Below, piece after piece: positions 2,304-20,430 of a DNA stretch of 64,000 nt (position 1 is its first letter; the number at the start of each line of letters is the position of its first letter). The stretch comes from a bacterium (GTDB taxonomy: Bacteria; Patescibacteriota; Saccharimonadia; Saccharimonadales; AWTP1-31), in contig JAUHZB010000002.1 of assembly GCA_030426125.1 (NCBI GenBank), positions 3,633 through 67,632 on the forward strand. Reading direction: 5' to 3'. The translations under genes and the position numbers were made by a program. Below the pieces are notes generated by a model, which was given only the letters and a program-made list of their open reading frames with translations, searched no databases and had not been told where the DNA came from.

Positions 2304-2319
2304 GGTTACAGCCGCCTAC

Positions 2320-4324: not shown

Positions 4325-6028
4325 TTAAGACTTACTAATAACTTTTCTGAGTTTCGGTAAGGCTGCCGACATTGCTACTGTACTTAGTATGGCTGTGGCG
4401 AACAATACTGTTATGGCCGATGAATCACCTGTCTCAGCTAGGTCGGTTGGTGCTACGGCAAGGCCAACTGGGTCAGATATTTCTCCGGTGTCTGGGTCAA
4501 GATCGAGTGGTCCGTTATCTACGATTGTGTATATTACTTCCAGCGCTGGGTCACCCTGATAGGTGGTTTCATTTATTGTAACGTCATCAAGGTTGCTGTA
4601 CTGCTCAGTGTTTGGATTGTATTTCCTGGCAATAACTTCCTCAGCTTTTAGGTTAGTAATGAAAGTTAAGGTAACTTCATTAGATTCGTTGGTAGTGTCG
4701 AAGCAGAAATCTACTAGGCCCATTGGGTATTGATAGCCAGCATCCTGAACAGCTAGAGCTACCTCTTTGACTGCAGTGCTACAAGTAATTGTGGTGCCGT
4801 CTGGTGTGGTAAGTAGTACCCGATTACCGTTTTCTGAATTTGGGAAGTTGGCGGTGTTTGAAGAGTTTTGGCTATCATCTGAAGTTGCCGATATATAGCC
4901 ATACGCTTCATTTGCAGCAATTGCTTCAGTTCCATCGCTGTTTAGATCTGCAGATATCCAGTCGTTCTCTTCATCATATTCTGCGCTTGGAGTTTCAACG
5001 CTCCAGGTTTCACCAAAATCATCGGATAAGAATAGACCACCGTTGTAACTGACAGCAGATATAACTTCTCCATCATCAGATATTGCGGTATCACTCCAAA
5101 AATTTAATTCCTCCGGATTTGGTGTTACTTCTGTATAGCTGTCGCCACCATCGTTTGAGGCGTAGACATTTTCTCCACCTGCATAATCTTCATGAGAGGC
5201 CACTATTATGCTTTGTCCATCTGCAGAAAGGTCATGGTAGAAATAATAAGCTTCATCGGCTGGGTCAAAAGGTGAAACGTCTTCCCAGCTACTACCACCG
5301 TTTTCTGATTTGTGTAAGGTATCGCCGTCATCTACGCCATTTTCACCACCAACTAGAATTGTTTCACCGTCGTCAGATATGGAGACCGATTTTAGGTCCC
5401 ATATATCTTCAATAGTACTCGAAGTCCAGCTGTTTCCACCGTTACTTGATATGTAGAGTTCACTATCGTCATTTTCTACTGCTGCTATTGTTGTTCCATC
5501 TCCAGAGACAACTACCTTGTCCCAGTCATCTGATTCGGCAGCTGCAGGCGTTATATCTTGCCATGTTCCTCCAGCATTAGCCGACATGAATAATTTACCA
5601 ACAGAACCTTCTGATTCTATATAATTAAGGCTATCATCACTCGATGCCACCATAACTTGGCCATTATTTGATACGTCAACATTTGTCCAATCGTGCCAGA
5701 TGCCGTCTTCTATATCTTCGGCAACATTTTCCCAGTTCAGGCCTGAATCAGCTGAAATATACAGAGGGCTTTCTTCGATCGGTTCACTTTCACCGCCGTT
5801 TATTACAGCTAGCATCATATGATTTCCCGTAGCCGAAATTGCAGCCGATACGTAATCGCCTCCTAGGCGATCAATGTCTTCTGGTCTTTGCCACTGATAT
5901 TCATTAGATGTTGCATATACAGTTGAGAAAATATCTGGCCTGGCTGCTAATACCATTGCGCCTACCGCGAGACTTGTTAATGTAACTTTAGATCTACTAG
6001 TTTTCTTAGAAACAGTTTTTGTTGCCAC
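4325..6028 (-). CDS. secreted BNR/Asp-box repeat surface protein with LAETG cell-wall sorting signal
   Basis: GTG start preceded by AAGGGG. N-terminal signal/anchor. Six S-x-D/N-x-G-x-x-W/Y Asp-boxes (SADSGLNW, SANAGGTW, SSNGGNSW, SENGGSSW, SNDGGDSY, SDDFGETW). The C-terminus has LAETG (nt 4427-4441), then a hydrophobic helix and a KLRKVISKS tail. Confidence 0.75.
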   Translation of the reverse strand: MATKTVSKKTSRSKVTLTSLAVGAMVLAARPDIFSTVYATSNEYQWQRPEDIDRLGGDYVSAAISATGNHMMLAVINGGESEPIEESPLYISADSGLNWENVAEDIEDGIWHDWTNVDVSNNGQVMVASSDDSLNYIESEGSVGKLFMSANAGGTWQDITPAAAESDDWDKVVVSGDGTTIAAVENDDSELYISSNGGNSWTSSTIEDIWDLKSVSISDDGETILVGGENGVDDGDTLHKSENGGSSWEDVSPFDPADEAYYFYHDLSADGQSIIVASHEDYAGGENVYASNDGGDSYTEVTPNPEELNFWSDTAISDDGEVISAVSYNGGLFLSDDFGETWSVETPSAEYDEENDWISADLNSDGTEAIAANEAYGYISATSDDSQNSSNTANFPNSENGNRVLLTTPDGTTITCSTAVKEVALAVQDAGYQYPMGLVDFCFDTTNESNEVTLTFITNLKAEEVIARKYNPNTEQYSNLDDVTINETTYQGDPALEVIYTIVDNGPLDLDPDTGEISDPVGLAVAPTDLAETGDSSAITVLFATAILSTVAMSAALPKLRKVISKS

Positions 6029-6102
6029 TTCTTTATTACCCCTTAAATAATCTTTAGCTTAACTATACCTATAATCGAGGCTTAGCACAAGCTTTATTGT
6101 GA

Positions 6103-7188
6103 CTAAGATTGTCTTAATTGGTCCTGCCTATAAAACAGAGTCGACAGACGCATCCGATAACTTCCATTACTTCTTCTGAGATAGTCAAAAGATGGGTCTA
6201 GCTGTTCCTTTGCGGTAGCCATTAAAGTTACATCACTGGGAATTATTTCCCCTTGAGCTACTTTGCCTATCGCGGCACAAATTTCCAGTTGGCGTGGTTT
6301 TTGTATTTGAGCTATTTGATGCGGCTGGAAATGTTCTAGTAATTCCAAAGCTATCAATAGTCTATCTACTTGCTTATAGGGTGTGGCGTTGGACAATATT
6401 TTAAGATCTTCTCTAGTGTAGACAACTCCCGGATAACGCTGATGCACTAGGCCGTGTGGTTTAGATATAGTCGATAGTAGCCCGATTATATTATCAGCAC
6501 TGACATCTACGGACTGGTCTGGTGTTTTAGTAGTCAGATCAGCATAGGCAGTGTCTAGTACAATTTTGTGGCCGGCTTCAACGAACTGGTCCCACTCTTC
6601 TTGGTCGTGCCAGTTGCCATCTATAGCGCTGGGGTTGGATACGAACCAAACTCGGCCATCTAGCGGTTCACCGGCTTCAGATAGTGATGGCGCCATGTCT
6701 ATACGATCTTTTGTTAGACCAACAGACTCTGCCTGACTGACGTAGTCGTGGTAATCACCTTTAATTATGCCGAGTCTGGTCATTTCTCCTTTGCCAACCC
6801 ATCCAGCCATTAGACGCAAGATCCCATCGGTTGCTCCGTGGGCTGTTGGGTATCGATGCTCAAAAGTAGATAATCCTGGGAACAGCGCTTCATTGCGATT
6901 TGTGATTCGCTCAATGATTGGTTCGTGTAGCGCTAAAAACTCTACTTTACCCGCAGTAGTAGGTAGCGTTAGATCTCTAGCAATACTAAAGCCACCTTCT
7001 TCCAGTAGTTCGCGGGCCTCTGCTTCCGAAGATAGTGGATTAAAATGCTTGGAATAATGTAAGCCTTCTAGAACTTCAGTGACTTCATTAAGCTGATAGC
7101 TAAGGAATGTTGGATTTAATTCACTAGGGTCGACTACTAATTCTGGTTCCTGCTCTGGACTACCCATATCTTTAACTGGCTGCCCCAC
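6103..7188 (-). CDS. class I/II (fold-type I) PLP-dependent aminotransferase-like protein
   Basis: Motifs in canonical order: FVSNPSAIDG (NPxNPTG-like), VLDTAYADL (D.aY) and LSTISKPHGL (S.SK PLP-lysine). The start is uncertain (GTG 7188 or ATG 7167). Confidence 0.6.
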   Translation of the reverse strand: MGQPVKDMGSPEQEPELVVDPSELNPTFLSYQLNEVTEVLEGLHYSKHFNPLSSEAEARELLEEGGFSIARDLTLPTTAGKVEFLALHEPIIERITNRNEALFPGLSTFEHRYPTAHGATDGILRLMAGWVGKGEMTRLGIIKGDYHDYVSQAESVGLTKDRIDMAPSLSEAGEPLDGRVWFVSNPSAIDGNWHDQEEWDQFVEAGHKIVLDTAYADLTTKTPDQSVDVSADNIIGLLSTISKPHGLVHQRYPGVVYTREDLKILSNATPYKQVDRLLIALELLEHFQPHQIAQIQKPRQLEICAAIGKVAQGEIIPSDVTLMATAKEQLDPSFDYLRRSNGSYRMRLSTLFYRQDQLRQS

Positions 7189-7212
7189 TTAGATTATTGC
7201 TTCTAGAGAGTC

Positions 7213-7881
7213 TCATAGATAGCTCCTTTTACCGGGGGCCTTCTTTCGTTTTATAGTGCTGGTCTCTTTCTTGCAGGTTTTACATCTGCCACATTCAATT
7301 GGCTTACCATCAGCGTAGTGAGGGGTTCGACAGGACCAAGTTAGAATTGCTAGATCTTCCGGTATAGTTTTGTATACTTCGTGCTTGAACAAGTCTTTTT
7401 GCGGGTATTCTTTTATTCTGGCGCTATGGTCTTCCTCTTCGGGATGAAAGGCGTTATGGACTCGTTTCGCACGCATTACCGATTCGGTGACACCAAGCTC
7501 AAAGTCGGTGGCTGTGGCTGCTATGACCACTTTAGTGATACTGTCGTCACGGGAAGTCATGTAACCAGAAATAAAGCTAATTATTTCAACATCGTAGATA
7601 AATTTTTTGCCGAAGTGAGGCAAAGCAATAGTTGATTCAGTATAGGAGAAGGGATGGTCTACATGCTTCTTCATATATTCAAGGATTTGTTTAATAGCCA
7701 TTGCTTCAGCTCTCCAACGAGCTTCCAGGTTTTTTATATGGATATGGTGAACCATTACTTCACCGTATTGATCGGGATTGTGCAATACATGCCAGAGGGC
7801 GGCGGTTGAATCAATGCCACCAGAAAACATTACTAAGGTGCGTTTTTTATCAGTCTTTTTAACTAACCTTTTTTTAGCCAT
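7213..7881 (-). CDS. QueC-like PP-loop ATP pyrophosphatase
   Basis: N-terminal SGGIDST PP-loop. The C-terminal LTWSCRTPHYADGKPIECGRCKTCKK matches the QueC zinc cluster (TWSCY...CGRCDSC). The central region diverges from QueC. Overlaps the upstream gene by 8 nt. Confidence 0.6.
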   Translation of the reverse strand: MAKKRLVKKTDKKRTLVMFSGGIDSTAALWHVLHNPDQYGEVMVHHIHIKNLEARWRAEAMAIKQILEYMKKHVDHPFSYTESTIALPHFGKKFIYDVEIISFISGYMTSRDDSITKVVIAATATDFELGVTESVMRAKRVHNAFHPEEEDHSARIKEYPQKDLFKHEVYKTIPEDLAILTWSCRTPHYADGKPIECGRCKTCKKETSTIKRKKAPGKRSYL

Positions 7882-8521
7882 TAACTTCCCTCTTATTTAT
7901 AGCTAGATTATACAGGAGTTGATCAGATAGTGTTCCGTTTTCAAAATAATCTAAAACTAGTTGGCCGCAGTTCTGGGCAACGTAGCTAAGGCTTTGCTCG
8001 TGGTTTGAAGTTTCAGTTTCTAGGGCGTATACAGCGCCATCAAGAATAGCATCGGTTGGTGAATCTAGCACATCTTCAGTAGCTGAATAAAAACAAAGTA
8101 CCCTCTCAAACAAAGACCGATCTACTCCGTTCATATAGCTTGCCAACAAATCTGATGAGCTAACAAGGTTTGGTAGTCGTTGACTGGTCCTAGGGTTATG
8201 GAAATTATAGGGATCAATTTTTGTGGAGGCTATTGCTATTCTATTTATACTACCTGGGGTATTAATGAGGTGACTTAGTGCTGTCTTTCCGCCGTCACTT
8301 AGCCCCAGAAGGTCTACTGTAACTTCCTCTGAATGGTTTTCTATCTCGGCGCTAGTTTCTTCAAATCTTTCTTGGTAGTCACTGCCAGTAGGGTCAATGC
8401 TTTTAGGGATGATTGTTAGGTTTGGCCTGGACCATAACTTAGGTATTTGGTCCTGTATTTCAGGTGTGCCATCAAAAGTTTTGAATAAGTATACTAGCCT
8501 CTCGTTCGTCCGGTCAGTCAT
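7874..8521 (-). CDS. alpha/beta-hydrolase-like protein (putative serine hydrolase)
   Basis: 215 aa with a nucleophile-elbow-like GLSDGG after a beta-strand (VTVDLLGLSDGGKTAL). Asp and His candidates lie downstream. Weak call. Confidence 0.35.
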   Translation of the reverse strand: MTDRTNERLVYLFKTFDGTPEIQDQIPKLWSRPNLTIIPKSIDPTGSDYQERFEETSAEIENHSEEVTVDLLGLSDGGKTALSHLINTPGSINRIAIASTKIDPYNFHNPRTSQRLPNLVSSSDLLASYMNGVDRSLFERVLCFYSATEDVLDSPTDAILDGAVYALETETSNHEQSLSYVAQNCGQLVLDYFENGTLSDQLLYNLAINKREVNG

Positions 8522-8584
8522 GAGGTTATAATAGCAGGCAGGTTAAGAAAAATCTTAATAAATATTGTCTAGTATTTCGATGTT

Positions 8585-8749
8585 CTACTTTCGAATACTA
8601 AGAATTAGTTCGATAAGAGCCATTACTAAGATTCCTGTGCCAAGACCAACAAATAGACCAGCTAGTAGGTTTCCGGTTAAGAATCCGATACCCATTCCTA
8701 TTAGCAATCCGGCTGGTACAAAAGCTCCACTAGGGCTGTTTTTCTTCAT
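8585..8749 (-). CDS. glycine-zipper micro membrane protein (54 aa), missed by ORF track
   Basis: My own translation gives MKKNSPSGAFVPAGLLIGMGIGFLTGNLLAGLFVGLGTGILVMALIELILSIRK. It is a paralogue of the 51-aa ORF at 45989..46144. The + strand ORF 8565..8768 looks like an antisense artefact. Confidence 0.5.
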   Translation of the reverse strand: MKKNSPSGAFVPAGLLIGMGIGFLTGNLLAGLFVGLGTGILVMALIELILSIRK

Positions 8750-8816
8750 GGTTTATGTCCTTTATTAACTTATACTATTATTTCACAAATAAGGATTGAA
8801 TTAAAATTTGGGCGAA

Positions 8817-9485
8817 TTATATAACCGATTGGATGGTTGGAGTGACATCGGTTCTAAGGATTACTCTATTTTCTCTAGTTATCCCCCGGTGTGGCTGTTG
8901 TTCGATAACACTACATAGATTGTTCACTATAACTGCCTCTCCTGGCCCGTATACTATTTCTTCAGACTCTATAGGGAAACTAGGGCTGTCAAAATCTGGG
9001 AGGTGGTATCTTGAGCCCTCGGTAACTGGATACTCTGTTGCAATCTGCAGAATGGCTGGGAATTCTGATAGATTCACTAACATGCGTAGATTACGGTCTG
9101 CATCGATATGCCATCTTCCAGTAGCGCCAAGCACAAAAGAATTTTCTATCATATATGTATCAATATCCGAGACCTCTCGCTTAGCAGCTGCTGAAGCAAC
9201 CTGCATACTTTCTCGAAGATATTGTTCAGTAGATTTGCTGGTTCTTACTATGTTGCTGTTTGGCAATAATGCTGAAATTTCGCTATCGGATAGAGTTTGG
9301 CTATTATCTTCTCCTGGATGGTGGGTTACATTGGCCATTAGGTTAATAGCTGGACCTATTGTGAAGTTTAATAGACGATCATACTGTTCAAAGAGTGGTA
9401 ATAGGCTATTGCCTAACTCAATAGATCTTTCGCTATCCAGCACCTGACCGATAGGACGTATTTTATTTGGTGCGTCGATTTTCAT
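8817..9485 (-). CDS. hypothetical protein with HxD...H (cupin / Fe(II)-2OG-oxygenase-like) motif
   Basis: ATG at 9485 (MKIDAPNK). The track start at 9503 is TTG. RWHIDAD followed about 75 aa later by QQPHRG fits a facial-triad pattern. No other recognisable motif. Confidence 0.3.
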   Translation of the reverse strand: MKIDAPNKIRPIGQVLDSERSIELGNSLLPLFEQYDRLLNFTIGPAINLMANVTHHPGEDNSQTLSDSEISALLPNSNIVRTSKSTEQYLRESMQVASAAAKREVSDIDTYMIENSFVLGATGRWHIDADRNLRMLVNLSEFPAILQIATEYPVTEGSRYHLPDFDSPSFPIESEEIVYGPGEAVIVNNLCSVIEQQPHRGITRENRVILRTDVTPTIQSVI

Positions 9486-9659
9486 GACTATATTAAAACA
9501 CAATTTATATAAATTATCAATACTTGAATCAAGCTATGGGCATCACTAATATGGGTGTGCAGTCTGCACTTTAGCTACGGTTAATATGTAGATACATTCT
9601 TAGCGAACTGACAACATTAGCTTGGCTATTACTTTTAGGTTGTAAATTGCACCTGGATT

Positions 9660-10040
9660 TTAGAATACATCCAAAACAATCAGAGTACACAGTAGTGCAG
9701 CGATAGTATAAAAAGCCCACCATCGCTCAGGCTTGCTTGGTGATATCGCGTTAGTTATAGTGCCAAGTCCAAAGAAAGCTACCATGATCCAAAGAACACC
9801 ATTCACTAGTCCGCTGGAATTAGCATTATAGTTTGCTGTCGACGCCATGACCACTATTGTCATGAAGAATGAATACCCAATAACAGCAATAGCGCTGATA
9901 ATCCGGTATTTCTTCGGCAAAGTCCCTTTGTGTTTACCACCATATGCAATGTGACCTAACGGTGCTCCCAATGCTAACTTTGCCTGGAATACAACTTGCA
10001 CGGCAAGTAGTCCGAGTAGTAACCACCCTGCACTGTCCAT
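9660..10040 (-). CDS. small integral membrane protein (4 TM)
   Basis: 126 aa, four hydrophobic helices. Lies 4 nt downstream of the preceding gene. Confidence 0.55.
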   Translation of the reverse strand: MDSAGWLLLGLLAVQVVFQAKLALGAPLGHIAYGGKHKGTLPKKYRIISAIAVIGYSFFMTIVVMASTANYNANSSGLVNGVLWIMVAFFGLGTITNAISPSKPERWWAFYTIAALLCTLIVLDVF

Positions 10041-10044
10041 TGGG

Positions 10045-10683
10045 TTAGGCTTTTACTCCCTTGAATAGCAAGTAGCCAATCATCCAGAATTCGCCAATGG
10101 TTGCGGGCATTGGTAGTGCTTCAGTAAGTGTAGTTTGCTCCGGCAGTAAGATACCTGTAAAGGTAGATAGAACGTAACCCACCCCACCAGCTACCAAGAA
10201 CCAAACCATGACTTTTGGCATGTTGTATTTGTGCGCCATATAGGCCATAGGTAGTAACCAGAGGCCAAAGAACAAAGTGCCAACCTGCCATAGTGTTTCA
10301 TGTGCTTCAAATAACGTTTGAACAGTATCGCTAGCGCCACTTGCTAGAGCTGTGTTGAGTGCCATTAGCCAAAAAGCTGATGCAGCTAATATAACGATGG
10401 CGTTCACCATACCGAAGGCAGCGATTAGCCCGGCAGTAAAGCTGTCTTTTTTCTTAAATAGTTTATAGAACCATACCGCTGCAAGTGCTTGGAATCCAAC
10501 GATGAGTACTTCTGCGGCTATGCCGAAACGAGCAAGTGACTCGTCGTTTACAAGATTAGCAGTTGTTTGTGCTGCATCCCCAGCGACGAATAACTGATCT
10601 CTAGCGAATAAAAATGCGAACACCCCCATTACTGCTAGACCTAAGTAAAATAGCCCTGTCCATTTTGCTGTTGTTAGTTTCAT
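10045..10683 (-). CDS. DUF4386-like membrane protein
   Basis: 212 aa. An N-terminus like WTGLFYLGLAVMGVFAFLF...AAQTTANL...FGIAAE is typical of the family as I remember it. Confidence 0.5.
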   Translation of the reverse strand: MKLTTAKWTGLFYLGLAVMGVFAFLFARDQLFVAGDAAQTTANLVNDESLARFGIAAEVLIVGFQALAAVWFYKLFKKKDSFTAGLIAAFGMVNAIVILAASAFWLMALNTALASGASDTVQTLFEAHETLWQVGTLFFGLWLLPMAYMAHKYNMPKVMVWFLVAGGVGYVLSTFTGILLPEQTTLTEALPMPATIGEFWMIGYLLFKGVKA

Positions 10684-10841
10684 AACCCTCCTATGCTTAA
10701 TTTAGTTTAATTGTAGCTTAAAAACCTGCGAAGAGCTAAATTATTTTAGATAAGTTGTCTATTTATTACAATTGGTTGTCTTGTACTCTTGCTGTTATGT
10801 GTTCTGTCTTAGCTGAGCTTATAGGTTGTGGGCTACTTAGT

Positions 10842-11180
10842 CTATCTGTTGAGCCCGACTATCAAAATAGCCACAACAGCCAAGGCTATACCGATATAAA
10901 CAGGTACTGATAGCTGTTCTTTTAATAATAAGAATCCCAGTACGTTTACCAGCACTAAGCTTGTTGCACTAAATAATGCCATAGTTTTCCCGACTTCGAC
11001 TTGTGTAAAGATAAATAGCTGACCAAAAGTAGCAACTGTGCGTATTACTGCATATAGCAAAAACCACCCCGCGAAAAAGGTAGATATTTTGAAGCCTTGA
11101 GTGGACATGTAATGTCGCGCTATTAAGTCGCTGGAAGTAAACAATAGCTGGCTTACAATTACTATTAAGATAAAATTCAC
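10842..11180 (-). CDS. half-size EamA/SMR-like 4-TM transporter
   Basis: 112 aa, GTG start preceded by AAAGGAAG, four helices. LLLKEQLS..IGIALAVVAILIV resembles the end of an EamA domain. Confidence 0.5.
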   Translation of the reverse strand: MNFILIVIVSQLLFTSSDLIARHYMSTQGFKISTFFAGWFLLYAVIRTVATFGQLFIFTQVEVGKTMALFSATSLVLVNVLGFLLLKEQLSVPVYIGIALAVVAILIVGLNR

Positions 11181-11270
11181 AAACTTCCTTTCACAATAAT
11201 TCTGTTACTTTATTTTGATTATAACCTACAGGTTGTTGAAAATGCCCAGCATTATGAGTGATTGTGGGGT

Positions 11271-11861
11271 TTAACTAAAGTCAGTTGTTTTAGGGTATAA
11301 ATCCCTAGCTAGCATTGCAATCCTGACTCCTGGCAGAAAAGTACGCTGAACGCTAGCTTGGCCATGTTTTCTCCATAGTGCCATTGTAATACTCAGACCA
11401 GCATAGGATTTTGTTTCATTAGTCTCAATGTCAACTAAACGCGTGGCAGTTACAATGTGCATGTCTCTGACCCAAGGTTTACCTAATTGCTCCTTTGGCC
11501 GTCCATAGAAGAGGTTATCTCCTTCGGGTCGCCTGATACGATTACATACCGCTACTGTTTCATCGAATACTATATGATCGCCCAAGGGCTCCTGGACACC
11601 TTTATAAAACCTTTGGCTAACGCTTGCCCCTTGCTTTCCTCTGTGTCTACTTGCCCAATGATTTGGTGATGAGATAAATTCCGAAGTCTGTTCTGTAGAT
11701 CCTGTATTGAGTAGTGACAGCATTTGGGCACCTAGTATCCTTGAAAAGATTTCGATTTCGTCTACTGTTTCGAATCCCTTTATAGTTGCTCCTTGTGGTA
11801 GGGTGGCAATATCTGCATTACTACACACAAATGGTTCAATAGTAGGACGAGAATCAATCAT
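11271..11861 (-). CDS. hypothetical protein
   Basis: 196-aa ORF with protein-like composition and no motif I recognise. Confidence 0.45.
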   Translation of the reverse strand: MIDSRPTIEPFVCSNADIATLPQGATIKGFETVDEIEIFSRILGAQMLSLLNTGSTEQTSEFISSPNHWASRHRGKQGASVSQRFYKGVQEPLGDHIVFDETVAVCNRIRRPEGDNLFYGRPKEQLGKPWVRDMHIVTATRLVDIETNETKSYAGLSITMALWRKHGQASVQRTFLPGVRIAMLARDLYPKTTDFS

Positions 11862-11940
11862 TATGTACTATTTTGCTTAAGTGGCCAACGTGATGCAAGC
11901 ACAAACAAAATAAAGTGATTGAGGATCGTTCATTATATAC

Positions 11941-11988
11941 CTGAACTTTATTCTTCGAGCTTGGCTCTGTAGTGATGGACGTTAGAAC
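11941..11988 (-). repeat. intergenic repeat copy R1 (partial: first arm and core only)
   Basis: The minus strand reads GTTCTAACgtccatcactacagagccaag... directly after the SRAP stop. It aligns with R2 and R4. Confidence 0.7.
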
Positions 11989-11994
11989 AAATCT

Positions 11995-12630
11995 TCAAAC
12001 CGGTGGCAGGATGTCTTTATGATTATTGCGAGGATTATTTACTTCTGTTGATACTTTTCGTATTTCTAAACCTTTATCATGGTATGGATGTAAATAGTCT
12101 GCGATTTCTTTATCACTAACAGCCCTTAGCCAACGATCTTCCTCGTTTTTATTCAAGATGACTGGCATCCTGGTGTGAATGGTAGACATTTCCTTATTTG
12201 GTTCGGTTGTCATAATGGAATATTGTAGTTTACCGTCATCATCAATATGATAAATACCAGCAAAAGTGAAAATGCCTTTTTCGTCTTTAGGGTGTATCCA
12301 ATACGGTACTTTTTCTTTACCTATTCTCTTCCATTCAAAAAAACCATTGGCAGGAACTAGGCACCTATAGTTACGGACAGTTTTTCCCCAAAATCTGGAC
12401 AGGGCTTTGTCGGACCTTGTGTTTATGATGTCTTTTTCTTTATCTGGACCGACAACCCGATGGATGCCCCACTGCATCAATGTTAATTGTTTATTACCAT
12501 CTTTCTCCACAATTATAGGCATTGATTGAGAAGGAGCTGCATTGTAATTGGGCTTAAACTTGTACCCAGTATTTTCCTTCAAACGATATTCGTCAGTTAC
12601 ATCACCAAAGAGTCCGTATCTTCCGCACAT
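11995..12630 (-). CDS. SOS-response-associated peptidase (SRAP/YedK family, abasic-site sensor)
   Basis: Begins MCGRYGL, with the catalytic Cys2. NYNAAPSQ, FFEWK and HTRMPVIL are family signatures. Confidence 0.85.
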   Translation of the reverse strand: MCGRYGLFGDVTDEYRLKENTGYKFKPNYNAAPSQSMPIIVEKDGNKQLTLMQWGIHRVVGPDKEKDIINTRSDKALSRFWGKTVRNYRCLVPANGFFEWKRIGKEKVPYWIHPKDEKGIFTFAGIYHIDDDGKLQYSIMTTEPNKEMSTIHTRMPVILNKNEEDRWLRAVSDKEIADYLHPYHDKGLEIRKVSTEVNNPRNNHKDILPPV

Positions 12631-12723
12631 ATTCTAATCATACCCCAAAACGACAAAAGAGACATTTCGCCTCTGTAAATCTTGGTTCTAACCTTGGCTC
12701 TCTGTAGTGATGGAAGTTAGAAC
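12631..12723 (-). repeat. intergenic repeat copy R2 (complete: attC-like inverted repeat + hairpin + TTTTGGGGTATGAT)
   Basis: GTTCTAAC (12685-92) and GTTAGAAC (12716-23) are 8-bp inverted repeats 23 nt apart. Hairpin at 12658-74. TATGAT (12637-42) lies 6 nt from the SRAP ATG. Confidence 0.8.
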
Positions 12724-13364
12724 TATTTTGGTTCAAACGTTAGATAACGTCCCTCTCCAATAATTTCCATTTCATTGTCTGTAATTTTAACTGCCATTTG
12801 GTCATCAAGTGCATAAACAGTATAAGGACAGCCTTTTACACGCTCCCTAACTGCATCTTCTGACTTTGCTACTGGAAATTTTGGACTAAACAGATGAACC
12901 TGCAAGCCAAAATCCACTAGGTTCAACCCGTCCAATACTTTGTCGGTGTTATCGGTATTAAAACGAATATCGGGTGTTGCGACATAACTACCTGCACTTA
13001 CGCCTACATATACTCTATCTTTGAGCAAGCGAGGTATCTCATCTACCAAGCCTGACTCAGTAAAACAAGACATTAAGTAGGTTGTGTTGCCGCCGTTCAC
13101 AAAAATGACGTTACTATCCTCTAAACGAGGCAACCATACATTTTTATCAGTCGCTGAAATATCTACAATATCTATTTGGGCAACACCCATATCACGCAAA
13201 CGAAGCATTTGGTCAATTGCCCAACCTTTGTCTCCAGGCTCCACATTTAGCGCCGTTGGAATAAACGCCACCTTAATTTCACTTGCTGGTTTATCAGAAA
13301 GCTCGAGCAATGCGTTTATTAGCGTAGGGTTTCTTAACCCACCTGAAGTTAATAATAATTTCAT
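12723..13364 (-). CDS. peptidase E / S51-family dipeptidase
   Basis: ATG 13364 (MKLLLTSGG). FVNGGNT and the GVSAGS nucleophile motif. The track start at 13448 lies inside the upstream repeat. Confidence 0.75.
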   Translation of the reverse strand: MKLLLTSGGLRNPTLINALLELSDKPASEIKVAFIPTALNVEPGDKGWAIDQMLRLRDMGVAQIDIVDISATDKNVWLPRLEDSNVIFVNGGNTTYLMSCFTESGLVDEIPRLLKDRVYVGVSAGSYVATPDIRFNTDNTDKVLDGLNLVDFGLQVHLFSPKFPVAKSEDAVRERVKGCPYTVYALDDQMAVKITDNEMEIIGEGRYLTFEPK

Positions 13365-13446
13365 AGAGATATTATACCCCAAAACGACAATAGAGGCATT
13401 TCGCCTCTGTAAATCTTGGCTCACAACAATAGAGGAAGTTATAAAC
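13365..13446 (-). repeat. intergenic repeat copy R3 (lacks second arm)
   Basis: The minus strand reads GTTTATAACttcctctattgttgtgagccaag-atttacAGAGGCgaaatGCCTCTattgtcgTTTTGGGGTATAATatctctATG. Confidence 0.8.
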
Positions 13447-13525
13447 ACTATCAGGCTAGATTTGAATACATTTACTGCTACAGAAGGTAATACGTCATCT
13501 TAGCGTCATTCGTAAGATTAAGGGA

Positions 13526-14011
13526 TTATTGAATGATTTCGATTTCAGTAGCAGAAGCCAATTCAGGAATATAAAGTACTTTCTTAATTATCCCTAATTC
13601 TTCTGCCAGTGCTGCAATTAACATTCCGTGAGTTACCCAAATATTTTCTTTTGGCGGATTCTTCAAGAGATTCATCGCAGCTTTCTTGGCGATTTTTGGC
13701 ACATCTTTATTTGCAATAACTTTATTAAGTTCTTCAGGACTAAGACCAGTGTTGACTTCGTTTAAGATTCCGTACTCATTCATTTTTTTGAAACCTGCAA
13801 TTTGGGCTGTTTGCTTTGTTCTAATTAGTTGTGAAATTGCAACAGGTTCTTTTTCAGTATCAATTCCAAGCTGTTCCAATACTGTTTTTAGCTTTAAGGC
13901 AGCTACTCTACCTTCATCGCTGAGTGGGGCTCCCTCTTTTGGGAATAAGTGTCTGTCGTGTCTCCCACCAATTGCCTTAGCATGTCGGATGATAATTACT
14001 TTTCTTCTCAT
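13526..14011 (-). CDS. histidine phosphatase (phosphoglycerate-mutase-like) family protein
   Basis: ATG 14011 (MRRKVIIIRHAKA gives the RHA/RHG motif). Second His in WVTHGMLI. The track start at 14029 is a TTG inside the repeat/promoter module. Confidence 0.7.
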   Translation of the reverse strand: MRRKVIIIRHAKAIGGRHDRHLFPKEGAPLSDEGRVAALKLKTVLEQLGIDTEKEPVAISQLIRTKQTAQIAGFKKMNEYGILNEVNTGLSPEELNKVIANKDVPKIAKKAAMNLLKNPPKENIWVTHGMLIAALAEELGIIKKVLYIPELASATEIEIIQ

Positions 14012-14104
14012 GAAATAATCATACCCCAAAATAGAATTAGAGGTCTATGACCCCTATTATTCTTGGTTCTAACCTTGGCTCACAACCATAGTGGAAGTTA
14101 TAAC
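14012..14104 (-). repeat. intergenic repeat copy R4 (complete)
   Basis: GTTATAAC (14097-104) ... GTTAGAAC complement (14066-73). Hairpin 14039-55 has a different sequence but conserved pairing. TATGAT (14018-23) lies 6 nt from ATG 14011. Confidence 0.8.
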
Positions 14105-14134
14105 TACAATTAAGCATGATTACGCAGTTGTAAA

Positions 14135-15175
14135 CTAGTAACTTAGGGATATTTTTTTGCTAGTTGTATCAATTCGAACATTCATCCCAAGTGGCATAAC
14201 AATTTGTGGGTCAGTGTGTCCAAAATCTAAATTCTGAATCACTGGAATATTTTTATTATATTCTCTCACTACTCTAAGTATTGTTTCTCTTTGCTGCTTG
14301 CGGTAATCTGCCTTTTCTTTTGTAGTGTTCTGCTGATCAAACTCCCACGCCTTAGGTCTTCCAACTAGAACAGCCTGAAACTTACCAAACCAGCCCCTCT
14401 CTCCAAATCCAGTTAGTAGATACTCTATAATCCAATGTTCTGGAATATCTTCCGCTGTTTCTAGTATCAGGATAGTGCCTTCGATGTCTTCATTTGAGGG
14501 CAAATATATGCCTGTTGATGTCTGAACGATTAAACTCTCCACACAGCCACCCCACAAGGTGCCATCTACCTGACCTTGGCCGTCCCAAAATAGTCCGTCA
14601 TTTTTTTCTAGTGGTCGCTGTTTATTGAGATTTTCTTTTTTAGACCAATCTAAGCCAATGTCGTTATATTCTGATGATGCCATAAGTTCAAGCTCGCCAC
14701 CTTCAAAAAGGGCCTTTTTTATTGAATTAACCGTCATGTCAAACATTTGAACATTCATCCCAAATTGGTTCATCACTCCACCACCGTAGTAGGAAGGAAT
14801 ACCCAGGCTCCATAAGAAATTATGTAAGTGAGTATTGTCGCTATATCCGAAAAATGGCTTTGGGTTCTCAGTGAATAACTTAGGGTCTAGATGCTTAATG
14901 AGCTTTATTTGGTCAGATCCACCAATAGAGGCAAATACAGCTTTGTTCCTTTCATCTGAAAAAGCTTCCATAATATCTCTTGCCCGGTCTTCAAGTGAAG
15001 AACCCATTTTTCTGGTTGTCGGGTATTCCTTTGTAATAAGTCCGAACTGTTCATTTAGTCTTTTCCGGCCAAGATCTAGCACCCAAGGAAAAATCTCAGG
15101 TAAACCGGCTGATGGAGAAATAATAGCAACCTGATCGCCCTTTGATAATTTTTGTAATGATACAAATTGCTTCAT
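14135..15175 (-). CDS. LD-carboxypeptidase / S66 peptidase (MccF/LdcA-like)
   Basis: ISPSAG, IGGSDQIKLI, the GYSDNT nucleophile Ser motif, and DFGHTDP His motif. Confidence 0.8.
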   Translation of the reverse strand: MKQFVSLQKLSKGDQVAIISPSAGLPEIFPWVLDLGRKRLNEQFGLITKEYPTTRKMGSSLEDRARDIMEAFSDERNKAVFASIGGSDQIKLIKHLDPKLFTENPKPFFGYSDNTHLHNFLWSLGIPSYYGGGVMNQFGMNVQMFDMTVNSIKKALFEGGELELMASSEYNDIGLDWSKKENLNKQRPLEKNDGLFWDGQGQVDGTLWGGCVESLIVQTSTGIYLPSNEDIEGTILILETAEDIPEHWIIEYLLTGFGERGWFGKFQAVLVGRPKAWEFDQQNTTKEKADYRKQQRETILRVVREYNKNIPVIQNLDFGHTDPQIVMPLGMNVRIDTTSKKISLSY

Positions 15176-15230
15176 ACCTAAAGTATAACACCTACAAATC
15201 GGCGTTCAGATTTCAATTTTAATCTGGGTA

Positions 15231-15265
15231 TGAAAAAGTCAGAACCATATCTACAGTTCTGACTT
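15231..15265 (-). terminator. hairpin plus T-run (minus strand) upstream of LD-carboxypeptidase gene
   Basis: 10-bp stem AAGTCAGAAC/GTTCTGACTT (15236-45 / 15256-65), followed on the minus strand by TTTTT. Confidence 0.5.
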
Positions 15266-15321
15266 TGCCTGTTCCAGCTTAGCTCAGCTTACAGGTCACG
15301 GACTATCAAGCAGAGGTATAA

Positions 15322-15364
15322 TACAAAAATGAGACATATGAGACATCATAATAGATGTCTCATT
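15322..15364 (-). terminator. probable terminator of the NTPase-SWIM gene
   Basis: AATGAGACAT (15329-38) pairs with ATGTCTCATT (15355-64). An alternative 10-bp stem is 15338-47/15354-63. A minus-strand T-run follows. Confidence 0.5.
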
Positions 15365-15398
15365 CTGTAGGATTATAAGGTCGCGAGACGCTCGCTTC

Positions 15399-16214
15399 TC
15401 AAGGCATACTTAACAATACCGCTTGATAATGGGAGCAATCATCTGCTTTAATATATGGCTTTTTTCCTGAAGCAAGCTTGCAGTCACAAGTCCATCCAGA
15501 AGTACTAATTGTGACATTATGGCGAGCGTTATCGCCATTGACGCTATATTCGTTAACACCTGTTTTGAATACCCGCTCTTCAACTAGGTACCGCAAGGCT
15601 TTACTAAACAATTTGTCCGCTGAAATAAACCTATCTGAACTGATGTAGTTATTTGCTAGTTTTGCGACATCTAAAGCAACTCGCCTGTCGAGTTCGTTAT
15701 AGTATTTTCGATTTTCAAGAGCTATTTGTATTATTCTGGATATATAAATACGGTTAGACTCATTTATTTGAAAGACTATTACATCTTCTCGTTTTAGGAT
15801 TTCTACAGTTAGATCATTGCTAAAGATGCTACTAACACTCGCTAGTAAATCATTGCCAGAATTAATGTATTTCTTCGCTAGCGTAGAAAAGCTATCCGAT
15901 AGCAGCTGCATTTGACCAATCTCATCGATATATAACAGTTCATTTGCTTTTATTCTTTGTAAATCAACAAAACTATAGTTGAGAAATCCATCAATAACAA
16001 AGAATTTTCCAACTTGAAATTTGCCATGTGTATTTGTGCGAGCGAGCCTGATTACTTGGCCTTCAGATGTGGTGATATCGAATCCTATACGAGTACCATT
16101 CTGTCTCAGTTCCTTCGTTACCATGCCTCTTGTTGGCTGTGTGGTGTTGGTAATGTGCTCGAAGATTACAGTGCTTTTCCCTGACTTCGGCGCACCAGTT
16201 ACAAGTATTTTCAT
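15399..16214 (-). CDS. THEP1-type P-loop NTPase fused to a C-terminal SWIM zinc finger
   Basis: Walker A is MKILVTGAPKSGKST. Walker B is LLYIDEIGQMQL. The C-terminal W-T-C-D-C-x14-C-S-H (C243, C245, C260, H262; nt 15429-15488) is a canonical CxC...CxH SWIM pattern. Confidence 0.65.
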   Translation of the reverse strand: MKILVTGAPKSGKSTVIFEHITNTTQPTRGMVTKELRQNGTRIGFDITTSEGQVIRLARTNTHGKFQVGKFFVIDGFLNYSFVDLQRIKANELLYIDEIGQMQLLSDSFSTLAKKYINSGNDLLASVSSIFSNDLTVEILKREDVIVFQINESNRIYISRIIQIALENRKYYNELDRRVALDVAKLANNYISSDRFISADKLFSKALRYLVEERVFKTGVNEYSVNGDNARHNVTISTSGWTCDCKLASGKKPYIKADDCSHYQAVLLSMP

Positions 16215-16232: not shown

Positions 16233-16895
16233 TTGACCTGCTCTTATGATAAAATGCAACGCATGATTCATGTTAAAGCCCTAGATGTAAATAAAGCGTG
16301 GCGAGAAATACTCATAAAGCTACTAAACGATGGCGGTAAGACTGGGAATGATAAATATTTGCGGGACGAGTTTGCTGTAATTGAGATTGATGACCCAGCA
16401 GTTATTCCTGCGGACAAACTATTTCCCATGCTACAAAAAGATCTCGATGTAATAAACGAATACATTCACAGCGGAAACAATGAGAAAGATGTAGTGCACG
16501 AGTGGACAAAACTTTATTATCACCGTGCGTTCGATGAGCCAAATTCACAAATAGAATTTCTTATTAAAAAGCTCGATCCTGAATGGCCCAAAGGTGAGGC
16601 ACAGATATCTATGTGGGACAAGAACGTTGATCAGCATCAAGAAATATCGCCCTGCACCCAAATCATTTGGGCGCGCATAAAACATGGCAAGCTGGAGTTA
16701 CACGTCCATGCAAACTCATCAGACGCTTATAAAAAGCTGCTTATGAATATGCTTGAGTTTATCTCGCTTCAGCATTATATTGCAGAAAAAGTTGGTATCC
16801 CCATTGGGAAGTATGTTCATGCACTGGATTCTTGTCATTTGCACACGAAAGATGTAGACAAAATTAATGAGATAAAAGGACAACTAGCATACTAG
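16233..16895 (+). CDS. minimal thymidylate-synthase-fold protein (ThyA-like, archaeal-size)
   Basis: ISPC(141)TQIIWARIKHGKLELHVHANSSDAYKKLLMNMLEF...HALDSCHLH aligns with ThyA [37 protein letters not shown]...GGDTHLY. It is about 210-220 aa versus about 264 aa for ThyA. The start is ambiguous (16233, 16254 or 16263). Confidence 0.6.
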   Translation: MTCSYDKMQRMIHVKALDVNKAWREILIKLLNDGGKTGNDKYLRDEFAVIEIDDPAVIPADKLFPMLQKDLDVINEYIHSGNNEKDVVHEWTKLYYHRAFDEPNSQIEFLIKKLDPEWPKGEAQISMWDKNVDQHQEISPCTQIIWARIKHGKLELHVHANSSDAYKKLLMNMLEFISLQHYIAEKVGIPIGKYVHALDSCHLHTKDVDKINEIKGQLAY

Positions 16896-16930
16896 TTGCA
16901 TAATGAACAAATATGTGATATAAATGTCAC

Positions 16931-18139
16931 ATGAATACAGAGGCGTTACTCCCTGGATTGAATCATACGGTAAGAGGTTCTGAGTGCGCGCCCGAAATAA
17001 CCGAAGATTATCGCGAAACACTAAACAAACTAGTTCTTACACACCAAAATGGAGTAACCCATTTTTTGGGTGGTCCACTCGATCTGGATGACGACAAAAA
17101 AGTGTGGCTTTCTCCTGTTGGGGTTGATGACGGCGAGACATACTCATACTTCCAGTTAATCTACGTAAATACAGACCCACTTGAATTGCAAGATGATCCA
17201 GCATCAGTTCCTGCTTCTCTGCTTGAAGTTGATGAAGCTGGTTACAAACTTACACCTCATGATCACCCAGGGTATACCCAGTTAATGAATCAATTTTCGG
17301 GGAAAATGAAGCAAGTTTTGGTTCGTCATTGCAATAGTGGGATGGCATATTACCCTCGAGCAATAACACCAACTCTTGATAAGATGACTATAGATGCTCA
17401 CTTGGATCGTGTTGTTTCGGTACTTGGGATAAGAGAACCTGAAGTTAGCATTACTCTGAGCAAGCCATCTGATGCTGAAGAAATTGACTTGAGTGCAAAC
17501 GTATTGCGCGCCACACACGCAAGGAAATACGCCTTTCGTGGTGCCGAAGTTCATTCATATGGTCTAGTGTTAGATGACGACCCTTGGAAGTATTACGAGG
17601 TGTTTACCCCCCACCCTGTTGAGGATATGCCAAAAGAAGATGTCTTGCTTCGTGTAGACTCAGGTTGTGATATTGGTCAAATCTTTGATGATAGAGGCTG
17701 TGATTGTCGTGAGCAACTGCATACCGCATTGTCTGAAATACAAGACATCGGAACTGGTGCGGTGATTCACATTCCTGCTCAAGATGGACGAGGCTTTGGT
17801 GCGGCTACCAAAATGGAAACTGAGGGTATGAAACGAGGAATCGAGGTCGCGACTAACCTTGGAAATGCCGTACCATATGACACTATAACAGCAGCACAAG
17901 TACTACTTGGTGATGAGTTTGATATCCGAACCTATTCTGGCGCAGGAAGAATACTCAGCATGCTCGGTATCCGTTCAGTTTTCCTTCAAACAGATAATCG
18001 GCTTAAAGCCGAAGGGCTTTCTGAGGGAGGTATATCTGTTACACGTAAGCCGACAAATACAACTGGCGTAAGAGGTGCCGAAAACCACATAGCCGCAAAG
18101 CATAGGCACAACGACATATACTATGGCGATGAGGATTAG
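16931..18139 (+). CDS. GTP-cyclohydrolase-II-like protein with ~190-aa N-terminal extension (URC1-like architecture)
   Basis: Residues about 190-400 align with RibA. LLRVDSGC246-x10-C257DC259 has the same spacing as the E. coli zinc triad. Also DGRGFG and LGIRSVFLQTDN..K. The N-terminal 190 aa are not RibB-like. Confidence 0.65.
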   Translation: MNTEALLPGLNHTVRGSECAPEITEDYRETLNKLVLTHQNGVTHFLGGPLDLDDDKKVWLSPVGVDDGETYSYFQLIYVNTDPLELQDDPASVPASLLEVDEAGYKLTPHDHPGYTQLMNQFSGKMKQVLVRHCNSGMAYYPRAITPTLDKMTIDAHLDRVVSVLGIREPEVSITLSKPSDAEEIDLSANVLRATHARKYAFRGAEVHSYGLVLDDDPWKYYEVFTPHPVEDMPKEDVLLRVDSGCDIGQIFDDRGCDCREQLHTALSEIQDIGTGAVIHIPAQDGRGFGAATKMETEGMKRGIEVATNLGNAVPYDTITAAQVLLGDEFDIRTYSGAGRILSMLGIRSVFLQTDNRLKAEGLSEGGISVTRKPTNTTGVRGAENHIAAKHRHNDIYYGDED

Positions 18140-18151
18140 GATTAGGCTGTC

Positions 18152-19033
18152 ATGACTATAGATGCCACAACTACCTTTAGCTCTCCAGGAATCGAGAAGA
18201 TTCGCAATCGTTGGGTTGAAACTGATTCAATGGCGGGTGTAGGAATTGATCCTGACATTGACAAGATACCGCCCGAGATATGGGGAGAGATTGGTCTGGA
18301 AGGAGACACGGCCGATGCGATTTTCCTTTTCAACAAGATGGTTATTGATGCGACCGTAGATCACGCAGTAGACTTTAAAGTAAATTCAAACTTCTTTCAG
18401 GGTGAACTAGGTCGCAAGGCGCTTGCCACTACTTTCGCATACCTCAAAGAAGAGTACCCAGCAGTCCTAAGAGTTTGCGACGGCAAATTTGCTGACGTTG
18501 GGCATACTGCAGACAAAATTGCTGAAGAAGTATTTGGAGAACTCGATGCGGATGCGGTTCTTTTGAATCCATATTTGGGGTTCGATGCAATACGACCCTT
18601 TACAGACTGGAAGGATAAATTATCAATACTATGCGTCAATACCTCTAATCCATCAGCATCAGAAGTTCAGGGCTTGCCTCTTGCTGGTGGTGTTCCGCTT
18701 TGGAGACACATACTAGAGCTTGGTCTCTCAGACTGGAACTATAATCAAAACGTTGTGCCAGTACTAAGCGCAACTCATGCTAGTAATCTAGAAGGTATAC
18801 GAGACGAAATTGGCGATGTGCCAGTTGTATTGGCGGGCGTCGGGTCTCAAGGTGGCGATCTTGGAGTAAGCGTACCCCACTGCCTGGACGATAGCGGGTA
18901 TGGACTTATGATTAGTGCTTCAAGAGCAATCCTCTACCCTGAGCGAGAACCTGGCGAAAGTCTAGGTGACGCATCAAGGCGGGCTGTAGTTAATTTGAAA
19001 CAAGCTATAAATAATGCAAAAGGAAATGTATGA
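18152..19033 (+). CDS. type-2 orotidine-5'-phosphate-decarboxylase-like protein
   Basis: GVGIDPD, FKVNSNFF, and the catalytic-type D-x-K-x-x-D in VCDGKFADVGHT. At 293 aa it is typical of long (type 2) PyrF. Confidence 0.6.
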   Translation: MTIDATTTFSSPGIEKIRNRWVETDSMAGVGIDPDIDKIPPEIWGEIGLEGDTADAIFLFNKMVIDATVDHAVDFKVNSNFFQGELGRKALATTFAYLKEEYPAVLRVCDGKFADVGHTADKIAEEVFGELDADAVLLNPYLGFDAIRPFTDWKDKLSILCVNTSNPSASEVQGLPLAGGVPLWRHILELGLSDWNYNQNVVPVLSATHASNLEGIRDEIGDVPVVLAGVGSQGGDLGVSVPHCLDDSGYGLMISASRAILYPEREPGESLGDASRRAVVNLKQAINNAKGNV

Positions 19034-19671
19034 GCGAATTTATAGTTACTGCTGAGTCTAGAGAGGCGGAAATGTGTAGGCTCATGGACAGGCATTTGAC
19101 TATGGATCGAGTTTTTGTACTGCTTCTTGGTCCATCTGCTACTGGCAAATCTACGCTAATCCGGGAGATGAATGCTCGATCAGGTGATATTAGCTTTGAG
19201 TATGTAAAACCAACCATGACACGACCCAATCGACCTGGTGAAGTCGATAAAGTGTCTGTATCAGATCAGGAGTTTGATGAGTTAGAGCAATCTGGAAAGT
19301 TCGTTGTTGTTAACGAATTATACGGCGTCAGGTATGGAACGCCATTAGAAGGCATATTGACGCCATTAGCTCAAGGCTCAACTCCCATACTTGACTACCC
19401 TATCGATACGGTAGACCAACTAGAGCGTAGTGAGTATGACATGTTGCGCTTCTATGTGTATCCTGGCTCCACGGAAGAATGGGCATCACGTGTGGAATCT
19501 AGTGGCAGAAATACAGACGGTCGTCTTGAGCGGGGTCTCAAGGAGCTCGGCTCTTTAGCAATTGGAATTGAGCACCCTGCTATTGATGTAAGTATTGTGA
19601 ATGCTGACGGGCAGGCAAACGCAGCAGCCTCAGAGATTCTTTCCGTATTAAGCAGAATTCAACAATCATAG
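19030..19671 (+). CDS. guanylate-kinase-fold nucleoside-monophosphate kinase
   Basis: P-loop LLGPSATGKST. TMTRPNRPGEV compares with HTTRQPRPGEV, and YGVRYGTP with GNYYGTS. ATGA overlap with the upstream gene. Confidence 0.6.
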   Translation: MSEFIVTAESREAEMCRLMDRHLTMDRVFVLLLGPSATGKSTLIREMNARSGDISFEYVKPTMTRPNRPGEVDKVSVSDQEFDELEQSGKFVVVNELYGVRYGTPLEGILTPLAQGSTPILDYPIDTVDQLERSEYDMLRFYVYPGSTEEWASRVESSGRNTDGRLERGLKELGSLAIGIEHPAIDVSIVNADGQANAAASEILSVLSRIQQS

Positions 19672-20299: not shown

Positions 20300-20430
20300 T
20301 CACTTCCAGAACTATTTAACAGAGGTGCATGATTGATCTATATAGATTTCAGTGTCTCGAACAACCAAGCTATGTATTCAGAATTTAGGGAAACTGGGTT
20401 CGAACCCAGTAACAGATAAGGAGTAGTGTC

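Follow-up and report, generated by a model that had tools for sequence, protein, structure and literature searches.

A candidate tRNA-Asn-anchored array of single-gene cassettes in Saccharibacteria

Analysis of a 64-kb stretch of a Saccharimonadales genome (contig JAUHZB010000002.1; hereafter the window, meaning all 64,000 nucleotides) revealed a run of co-oriented minus-strand genes of unrelated function, each followed by a copy of the same short element, the core, which terminates in GAGCCAAG, an 8-nt sequence shared with the 3′ end of tRNA-Asn. We consider it probable, at about 0.6, that the window carries part of a tRNA-Asn-anchored gene-cassette array that is widespread in Saccharibacteria and whose cassettes enter at the 3′ end of this tRNA gene by site-specific recombination, since such a mechanism fits the 8-nt junction, the anchoring at the tRNA and the tightly placed breakpoints between mosaic cassettes. 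An identity of 8 nt is too short for RecA-type recombination, so the fact that tRNA and cassettes share only this much favors site-specific over RecA-type exchange.

Cores, modules and cassette genes

A full copy of the repeated element fills an entire intergenic region of ~90-100 nt and comprises the core, a terminator-like hairpin with a T run and a -10 box, ending in TTTTGGGGTATRAT, exactly 6 nt and the ATG of the next gene. The three full copies were recovered by a repeat search of the window as one 91-nt repeat family, and their short G+C hairpins with a T-rich stretch are among the top-ranked terminator-like sites within 9-17 kb. The core consensus is GTTMTAAC-TTCC-N11-GAGCCAAG, to which the type A core adds ~25 conserved bases upstream. 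The repeats are real and above chance: GAGCCAAG occurs nine times in the window against 1.8 expected, and repeat and profile searches found the element nowhere else in the 64 kb, the other ~60 genes being devoid of it. The features of the array are listed below, with coordinates as positions in the window and sequences read on the coding (minus) strand.

20487-20561, minus strand: tRNA-Asn(GTT), ending ...GGGAGCCA, the proposed entry site and anchor (ARAGORN and sequence)
15399-16214, minus strand: NTPase_1, the most upstream cassette gene of the window array (Pfam)
15278-15302, minus strand: R5, a degenerate type C core, TCCGTGACCTGTAAGCTGAGCTAAG, resembling tRNA-Asn at its T-loop and acceptor 3′ end (sequence and alignment)
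15176-15277, minus strand: class (a) module with hairpin AAGTCAGAACTG..GGTTCTGACTTTTT, conserved CATACCC..AATTGAAA and TATACT-N6-ATG (blastn, sequence and alignment)
14135-15175, minus strand: S66 LD-carboxypeptidase cassette gene (Pfam)
14074-14126, minus strand: R4 core, type A, ..GTTATAAC TTCC ACTATGGTTGT GAGCCAAG (nhmmer, E = 4e-13)
14012-14073, minus strand: class (c) module of R4, with the arm GTTAGAAC at 14066-14073, a hairpin at 14038-14056, TATGAT at 14018-14023, then 6 nt and ATG
13526-14011, minus strand: histidine phosphatase (His_Phos_1) cassette gene (Pfam)
13415-13464, minus strand: R3 core, type A with one additional T (GTTTATAAC) (nhmmer, E = 5e-11)
13365-13414, minus strand: module of R3, class (c) without its first 12 nt (GTTAGAACCAAG), with a hairpin at 13392-13408 and TATAAT at 13371-13376
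12723-13364, minus strand: Peptidase_S51 (PepE-like) cassette gene (Pfam)
12693-12729, minus strand: R2 core, type B, TAG-TTCTAAC TTCC ATCACTACAGA GAGCCAAG (nhmmer, E = 1e-7)
12631-12692, minus strand: class (c) module of R2, with GTTAGAAC at 12685-12692, a hairpin at 12658-12674 and TATGAT at 12637-12642
11995-12630, minus strand: SRAP (SOS response-associated peptidase) cassette gene (Pfam, 2e-53)
11960-11988, minus strand: R1, a decayed type B core, GTTCTAAC GTCC ATCACTACA GAGCCAAG, with a 2-nt deletion (nhmmer, E = 0.5)

The window thus holds five copies (R1-R5). An earlier, sequence-only reading of this locus had described four minus-strand genes, for an LD-carboxypeptidase, a histidine phosphatase, peptidase E and SRAP, each followed by one copy of the same element; Pfam matches bear out all four identities, and the arrangement stands. 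Its four copies are all present, and a fifth is now added in the degenerate R5 (15278-15302), which together with the 100-nt module beside it places the NTPase gene at 15399-16214 in the array. The arms that it had located were also confirmed, with GTTCTAAC at 12716-12723, 23 nt and GTTAGAAC at 12685-12692 in R2, GTTATAAC at 14097-14104 pairing with GTTAGAAC at 14066-14073 in R4, and the first arm only in R1 (11981-11988) and R3. The element itself had been drawn too small: it was taken to be an inverted repeat of ~39 nt, and the real repeat is the whole intergenic region.

The individual copies differ in detail. The R2 core abuts the stop codon of the peptidase S51 gene, and its class (c) module matches the tRNA-Asn trailer of another locus, L078; R1 has no class (c) module downstream. 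The hairpin stem of R4 shows compensatory changes relative to those of R2 and R3, and the 12 nt missing from R3 (GTTAGAACCAAG) lie between two CCAAG direct repeats. The class (a) module at 15176-15277 has blastn matches in >20 loci, and homologs of the NTPase_1 gene are cassette genes in other loci, including L071, where the homolog is the first open reading frame (ORF) after tRNA-Asn. Within this module class, a conserved stretch that follows the hairpin, TATACCC-N4-TAGAATTGAAAC, is far more conserved than a terminator role demands. All ORFs over the ~16 kb downstream of the array (511-16214) are on the minus strand; several of them lack a Pfam family, and no cores were detected between them by profile. 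These minus-strand ORFs may be old cassettes with decayed cores.

A scan of genomes, one per species, with the exact pattern TTMTAACTTCC-N11-GAGCCAAG matched 83 stretches, where ~9 would be expected by our own estimate from uniform base composition, and at least 120 further stretches were matched in metagenome contigs, so that the core is known from ~200 contigs, mostly of Saccharibacteria. Nearly all genome matches are metagenome-assembled genomes (MAGs) labeled Saccharibacteria or Patescibacteria by their depositors; three matches are in complete chromosomes, and the matches include the long-read and complete genomes CP011211.1, OZ246406.1 and OZ246417.1. A profile built from the matches found two to four copies in many 8-kb loci, giving 156 cores in 82 genome loci with type C included, and in a single locus only were cores found on both strands. 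Core spacing in the genome loci has a median of 896 nt (range 378-4991), and the metagenome loci show the same co-oriented array behavior. The core is always in sense orientation just after a stop codon: a co-oriented ORF ends 0-80 nt in front of it, and the next ORF starts 20-120 nt behind it. As each assembly had one match locus, there appears to be one array per genome, as far as sampled.

Three types of core were distinguished, all of them terminated by GAGCCAAG. Type A consists of GTTATAAC with the upstream extension of 25 nt, type B has GTTCTAAC abutting the stop codon, and type C reads TCCGTGACCTGTAwGnnGAGCCAAG and was found in 10 copies in the arrays of eight loci plus the window. The conserved primary-sequence boxes of the core are GTTMTAACTTCC and GAGCCAAG.

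The cargo is diverse: 170 core-adjacent ORFs fall into 146 blastp clusters, and 110 core-followed ORFs match 66 Pfam families, led by NUDIX, DUF1697, HAD, S66, DUF5661, His_Phos_1, NTPases, methyltransferases and GNAT. A TANNNT box stands 6-7 nt before the start codon in 47 of 114 cassette starts, and Shine-Dalgarno-like motifs were seen in 11 of the 114; ahead of each gene stands a terminator-like hairpin. By these sequence patterns the cassettes look self-sufficient for expression, each probably forming its own transcription unit. Defense and toxin genes are found near cores in L087 (1602-9746) and L088 (5002-6636), among them those for GmrSD, a restriction-modification enzyme of MmeI type, a DEAD helicase, T5orf172, a zeta toxin and Fic. 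In L089, a strong type A core (10172-10220, minus strand; E = 2e-14) ending in GAGCCAGA follows GmrSD/HNH and EcoRI-methylase genes (10290-11821) beside a tRNA-Thr; the remaining genes of this contig resemble proteobacterial ones (Mla, AccBC, PrmA), and it is a mosaic in GC content. The L089 core could reflect cross-phylum cassette transfer or a chimeric assembly.

Several identities for the core were considered and rejected. A structured RNA or DNA hairpin was ruled out by the lack of covariation, the weak folds and the lack of an Rfam family (for positions 11000-15000, Rfam at E <= 10 yielded three chance-level matches only), and a tRNA-like fold of types A and B by inspection, which found no acceptor or T-stem pairing. 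A dif/Xer-type site seemed unlikely, as comparison by eye with dif sequences gave only a partial one-arm match (AGGAAGT) and no conserved XerD-type arm. A DNA uptake sequence was rejected because the copies are limited to one array, and a phage or plasmid attP because a search of viral contigs did not find the pattern. A dispersed repeat of the repetitive extragenic palindrome, bacterial interspersed mosaic element or terminator type is at odds with copies that in the window occur only in the array and in the loci are one-stranded and clustered after tRNA-Asn; the generic repeat scattered between core genes that the sequence-only reading had allowed for was likewise not what was found, neither in the window nor at L086-L088, each of 20 kb. 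The core was also compared with protein-gene 3′ ends, as the reverse strand of type A (e.g., 14074-14126 and 13415-13464) reads WLTTIEEVITxIKxDL-stop and variation between the 72 distinct type A cores falls mainly in one codon phase, with a bias to wobble positions. Synonymous changes make up a fraction of 0.37 in this reverse frame, 0.31 in the forward frame with the same wobble positions, and 0.08-0.15 in the other four. The reverse frame has no start codon and is closed just upstream of the W in most copies, no long ORF with such an ending was found within the loci, and a profile search of 5.8 billion proteins gave only singleton ORFs of 33-84 aa; a copy of a protein-gene 3′ end was rejected in this form.

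The tRNA-Asn anchor and the mosaic breakpoints

ARAGORN found tRNA-Asn as the sole tRNA in the 83 genome loci, in 20 of them (L086 and L088 included) in addition to the window; of the 20 tRNAs in the independent set of metagenome loci, 17 are tRNA-Asn, which makes 37 of 40 tRNA genes over both sets. Every tRNA-Asn is on the same strand as the cores and upstream of all co-oriented cores, usually with the first core 336-1528 nt away, and smpB together with tRNA-Asn is often found upstream of arrays. The only exceptions are opposite-strand core matches in L012, L106 and L188, those in L106 and L188 lying ~1.9 kb upstream of the tRNA.

The tRNA-Asn genes end in ...GGAGCCA, usually followed by AG and then by hairpin modules of the classes that are found after cores. 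GAGCCA represents the last six bases of tRNA-Asn (the end of the acceptor stem, the discriminator G and CCA), and GAGCCA(AG) is common to all cores and to the tRNA terminus; types A and B are otherwise unlike the tRNA, and type C cores look, over ~25 nt, like tRNA-Asn in decayed form (T-loop and acceptor 3′ strand). The likeness continues beyond the junction, as 9-11 of 20 tRNA trailers can be matched, in register and starting at GAGCCA, to a module that follows a core in a different genome (85-96% identity over 42-96 nt). For example, the first cassette after the tRNA in L078, encoding a DUF1697 protein, shares 83% identity across 670 nt with a cassette of L031 that has no intact tRNA in front of it, and the homology begins exactly at GAGCCA; the first ~140 nt of the same L078 cassette are also found after a core in L053.

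Breakpoints were examined with 305 segments centered on the last G of the core. In 20 pairs the two sequences are alike on the upstream side only (at least 80% identity over at least 200 nt), and 13 of these stop at -2 to +1 while six continue into the common class (a) module; eight pairs are alike on the downstream side only, starting at -48 to -30 and thus extending only through the conserved core; and 16 pairs continue on both sides. The carboxypeptidase cassette of the window is 88.6% identical to its L052 counterpart over 1118 nt (91-92% over the last 600-700 nt), the similarity stopping at the last G of the R4 GAGCCAAG. Identity reaches 98% between representatives of different species (L055/L082 and L023/L084). 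Of 20 pairs of homologous cassette genes in different loci, 19 have neither neighbor in common. Together, the breakpoints and the unshared neighbors indicate that the putative mobile unit runs from the hairpin module through the promoter-like box and the gene to the core, and is joined in or beside GAGCCAAG. The idea of a cassette array has therefore held up, with one array in the window, co-oriented arrays in many genomes, diverse genes, shuffling, and breakpoints at the 3′ end of the core.

Other features around the tRNA genes deserve mention. Four plus-strand genes of the window at 16233-19671, resembling those for thymidylate synthase, GTP cyclohydrolase II, orotidine monophosphate decarboxylase and guanylate kinase, form a block that is syntenic in L056 at 65% identity and may constitute an operon for nucleotide modification or salvage. 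A T-arm-like hairpin, ACTGGGTTCGAACCCAGT (20400-20425, minus strand), follows tRNA-Asn at a distance of ~100 nt, past its terminator, and may be a relic tRNA fragment of earlier recombination. An Abi_alpha (abortive infection) gene (50324-51034, minus strand) lies directly downstream of tRNA-Gln (51059-51133), and in the metagenome locus L145 a co-oriented tRNA-Gln is followed by two cores at distances of 2.2 and 2.8 kb; tRNA-Gln may mark another accessory site linked to a tRNA.

Recombination model and competing explanations

In the model that we propose, the unit would measure ~0.4-2.9 kb (median 0.9 kb) and consist of a hairpin with a T run, a -10 box, one gene (occasionally two) and a core of 30-55 nt ending in GAGCCA-AG; the -10 box, 6-7 nt before the ATG, would give rise to a leaderless transcript. 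Cassettes would enter and leave by site-specific recombination, with the crossover in or beside the 8-nt identity GAGCCAAG common to the tRNA 3′ end and every core. The tRNA-Asn end would then act as the attI-like entry site and each core as an attC-like, cassette-borne site, and new insertions at the tRNA end would displace older cassettes downstream. The presumed recombinase would act in trans, encoded elsewhere in the genome or on another element. The 12-nt difference between R2 and R3 amounts to one CCAAG-to-CCAAG step and would fit occasional use of the second CCAAG.

A number of observations weigh against this model, foremost those that concern the recombinase. Neither PF00589 nor any other recombinase family was found among the window ORFs scanned with Pfam (for one scan, among 25 of its 81 Pfam families); the window ORFs at 2320-3660, 6103-7188, 35610-36608 and 42917-44116 have no Pfam match. 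No recombinase was present in the three annotated 20-kb contexts (L086-L088), none recurred among the ORF clusters of the loci or was seen among the Pfam matches of core-followed ORFs, and crude motif scans of ~200 loci (~1.2 Mb) revealed none, the sensitivity of the tyrosine-recombinase pattern being limited, as it missed a lambda Int test sequence. The core pattern had no match in viral contigs. In the window, ~5 kb of other genes, namely plus-strand nucleotide-metabolism-like genes and one small ORF, separate tRNA-Asn from the array. The sequence to the right of the crossover differs between module classes, so that a canonical two-armed core site is not evident, and the codon-phase signal in the core is not accounted for. 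The data are nearly all from MAGs and metagenome contigs, so chimeric assembly at the repeats could account for some of the mosaic joins, although the matches include long-read and complete genomes as well; a Logan contig does end within the class (a) module. Finally, exact-protein look-ups with SRAP, the histidine phosphatase and the S66 peptidase gave the same context only, and neither circular forms nor empty sites nor polymorphism between strains were observed.

A first alternative is that cassettes are exchanged by homologous recombination after natural transformation, for which Saccharibacteria are competent. The tRNA-Asn/smpB flank and the 50-nt cores would then provide portable homology as relics of ancient integrations, with no dedicated recombinase today, in keeping with the lack of a recombinase near any array examined. 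Conservation of the cores (30-55 nt) and of the class (a) modules (70-140 nt) is sufficient for some homologous exchange, and the downstream-only pairs start anywhere from -48 to -30. However, 13 of the 20 upstream-only breakpoints fall within 3 nt of the core end, a move between the tRNA-adjacent and any other position needs a join inside the 8-nt identity, and homologous exchange leaves unexplained why each unit ends with a copy of the tRNA terminus. We therefore regard it as an unlikely account of the arrays by itself; it is nonetheless the main rival, and exchange after DNA uptake may well contribute alongside site-specific recombination. Less probable still is an ordinary gene cluster in which a lineage-specific regulatory module (a 3′ untranslated region element, a terminator and a promoter) has spread by local duplication and is not a mobility site. 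The terminator-like hairpin, the -10 box at a fixed distance from the ATG and the invariable sense orientation directly after the stop codon are what such a module would display, but the core is kept across many species behind unrelated genes whose neighbors are not conserved, homology breaks off where the core ends, tRNA-Asn has the same junction and modules, ~60 other genes of the window lack the element, and neither an Rfam match nor covariation was found.

The sequence-only reading had offered, with caveats, two options, a degenerate or novel family of recombination sites in an array like a cluster of attC sites lacking integrases (CALIN; PMC4889954) and a lineage-specific intergenic repeat. 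In the integron explanation, the repeats would be the short attC sites of a degenerate CALIN, on which an IntI-type integrase would act in their folded, single-stranded form. The cassettes are indeed co-oriented, short and functionally unrelated, the 8-nt arms of R2 and R4 match RYYYAAC and GTTRRRY at six of seven positions, and the putative crossover lies just before the GTTAGAAC arm. Typical attC sites, however, are imperfect palindromes (R''-L''...L'-R') whose stable hairpins carry extrahelical bases. Here a GTTAGAAC-like second arm follows only 11 of 136 cores (8%), and the tRNA-adjacent site lacks the first arm. The hairpins of R2 and R4 have energies of -4 and -3.6 kcal/mol with an unstructured loop of 21-23 nt and z scores of -1.8 to +0.5, not clearly better than shuffled sequence; L boxes are missing, and no base-pair covariation was detected within the core. 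Furthermore, the cassettes bear promoter-like -10 boxes, which integron cassettes, mostly promoterless and expressed from Pc, rarely do (PMC4889954), no intI was found, and the conserved junction is the tRNA-Asn terminus. We consider this explanation highly improbable; the cassette-array idea was right and the attC/integron label very probably wrong. Site-specific recombination at tRNA-Asn remains our preferred explanation.

Relation to known systems

An incomplete literature search found no description of integrons, attC sites, cassettes or tRNA-Asn islands in Saccharibacteria or Patescibacteria, and a prior description is possible; with this proviso, a tRNA-Asn-anchored single-gene cassette array looks undescribed, and the cores that bound its self-expressing cassettes look like a new family of conserved sites. 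More tentatively, the arrays might represent a separately evolved, integron-like gene-capture platform of Saccharibacteria, and possibly of other Patescibacteria, with entry at tRNA-Asn, 30-55-nt sites ending in GAGCCAAG and an unlinked putative recombinase, operating within and between species. Saccharibacteria are episymbionts with ~1-Mb genomes in which the gain and exchange of accessory genes are poorly understood, and a single recognizable hotspot at tRNA-Asn would account for a large part of their flexible genes, its cargo comprising NUDIX, HAD, GNAT, peptidases, restriction and GmrSD-type defense genes, and toxins. The signature of tRNA-Asn plus GAGCCAAG makes the question testable in MAGs and cultured strains, and if the recombinase were found, the tRNA-Asn site and the 55-nt core could serve for targeted integration in bacteria that are hard to engineer.

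Units without a recombinase of their own are familiar from cis-mobilizable elements (CIMEs) beside integrative and conjugative elements (ICEs) and from composite staphylococcal cassette chromosome (SCC) islands at the 3′ end of rlmH, which are bounded by att-type direct repeats, are mobilized in trans and accumulate in tandem at a single site. Such units are few and measure from kilobases to tens of kilobases, and they are located at the 3′ ends of protein genes or beside a resident ICE or ccr element, which supplies the recombinase. The arrays described here are similarly made of repeat-bounded units without their own recombinase, in tandem at one chromosomal site, whereas no helper element is visible near them.

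With integrons and CALINs the arrays share one hotspot per genome, as far as sampled, and co-oriented, diverse and mostly single-gene cassettes; as in integrons, a conserved site ends each cassette, the crossover would lie at the 3′ edge of this site, and a fixed entry site would stand at the array end, and as in CALINs no integrase was found nearby. Unlike integrons, the sites are kept in primary sequence and not as attC hairpins, entry would occur at the 3′ end of tRNA-Asn and not at attI beside intI, the cassettes bring their own terminator-like hairpin and promoter-like box, and the host genome is ~1 Mb, a size class reported to be without complete integrons (PMC4889954). If our reading is true, it would represent a second, independent solution to integron-style stockpiling of genes, in a size class reported without integrons.

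A further parallel is found in the tycheposon islands of Prochlorococcus, which consist of tandem tRNA-targeting integrative elements (bioRxiv 10.1101/2020.12.28.424599). Tycheposons are multi-gene elements with their own tyrosine recombinase and replication genes, in contrast to the single genes, with no integrase found, of the present arrays; their repeats are plain partial tRNAs of ~40 nt, whereas the tRNA likeness here spans 8 nt (types A and B) or ~25 nt (type C), the rest of the core being a separate conserved sequence. In common with the arrays, tycheposons form islands of accessory cargo seeded at tRNA 3′ ends in a streamlined genome; partial tRNA-like repeats separate their units, to which the cores correspond only as far as their own short tRNA likeness goes. 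Each further tycheposon inserted at the site moves the older ones inward, as we propose for the cassettes. Among known systems, tRNA-seeded islands that grow by repeated insertion come closest in mechanism.

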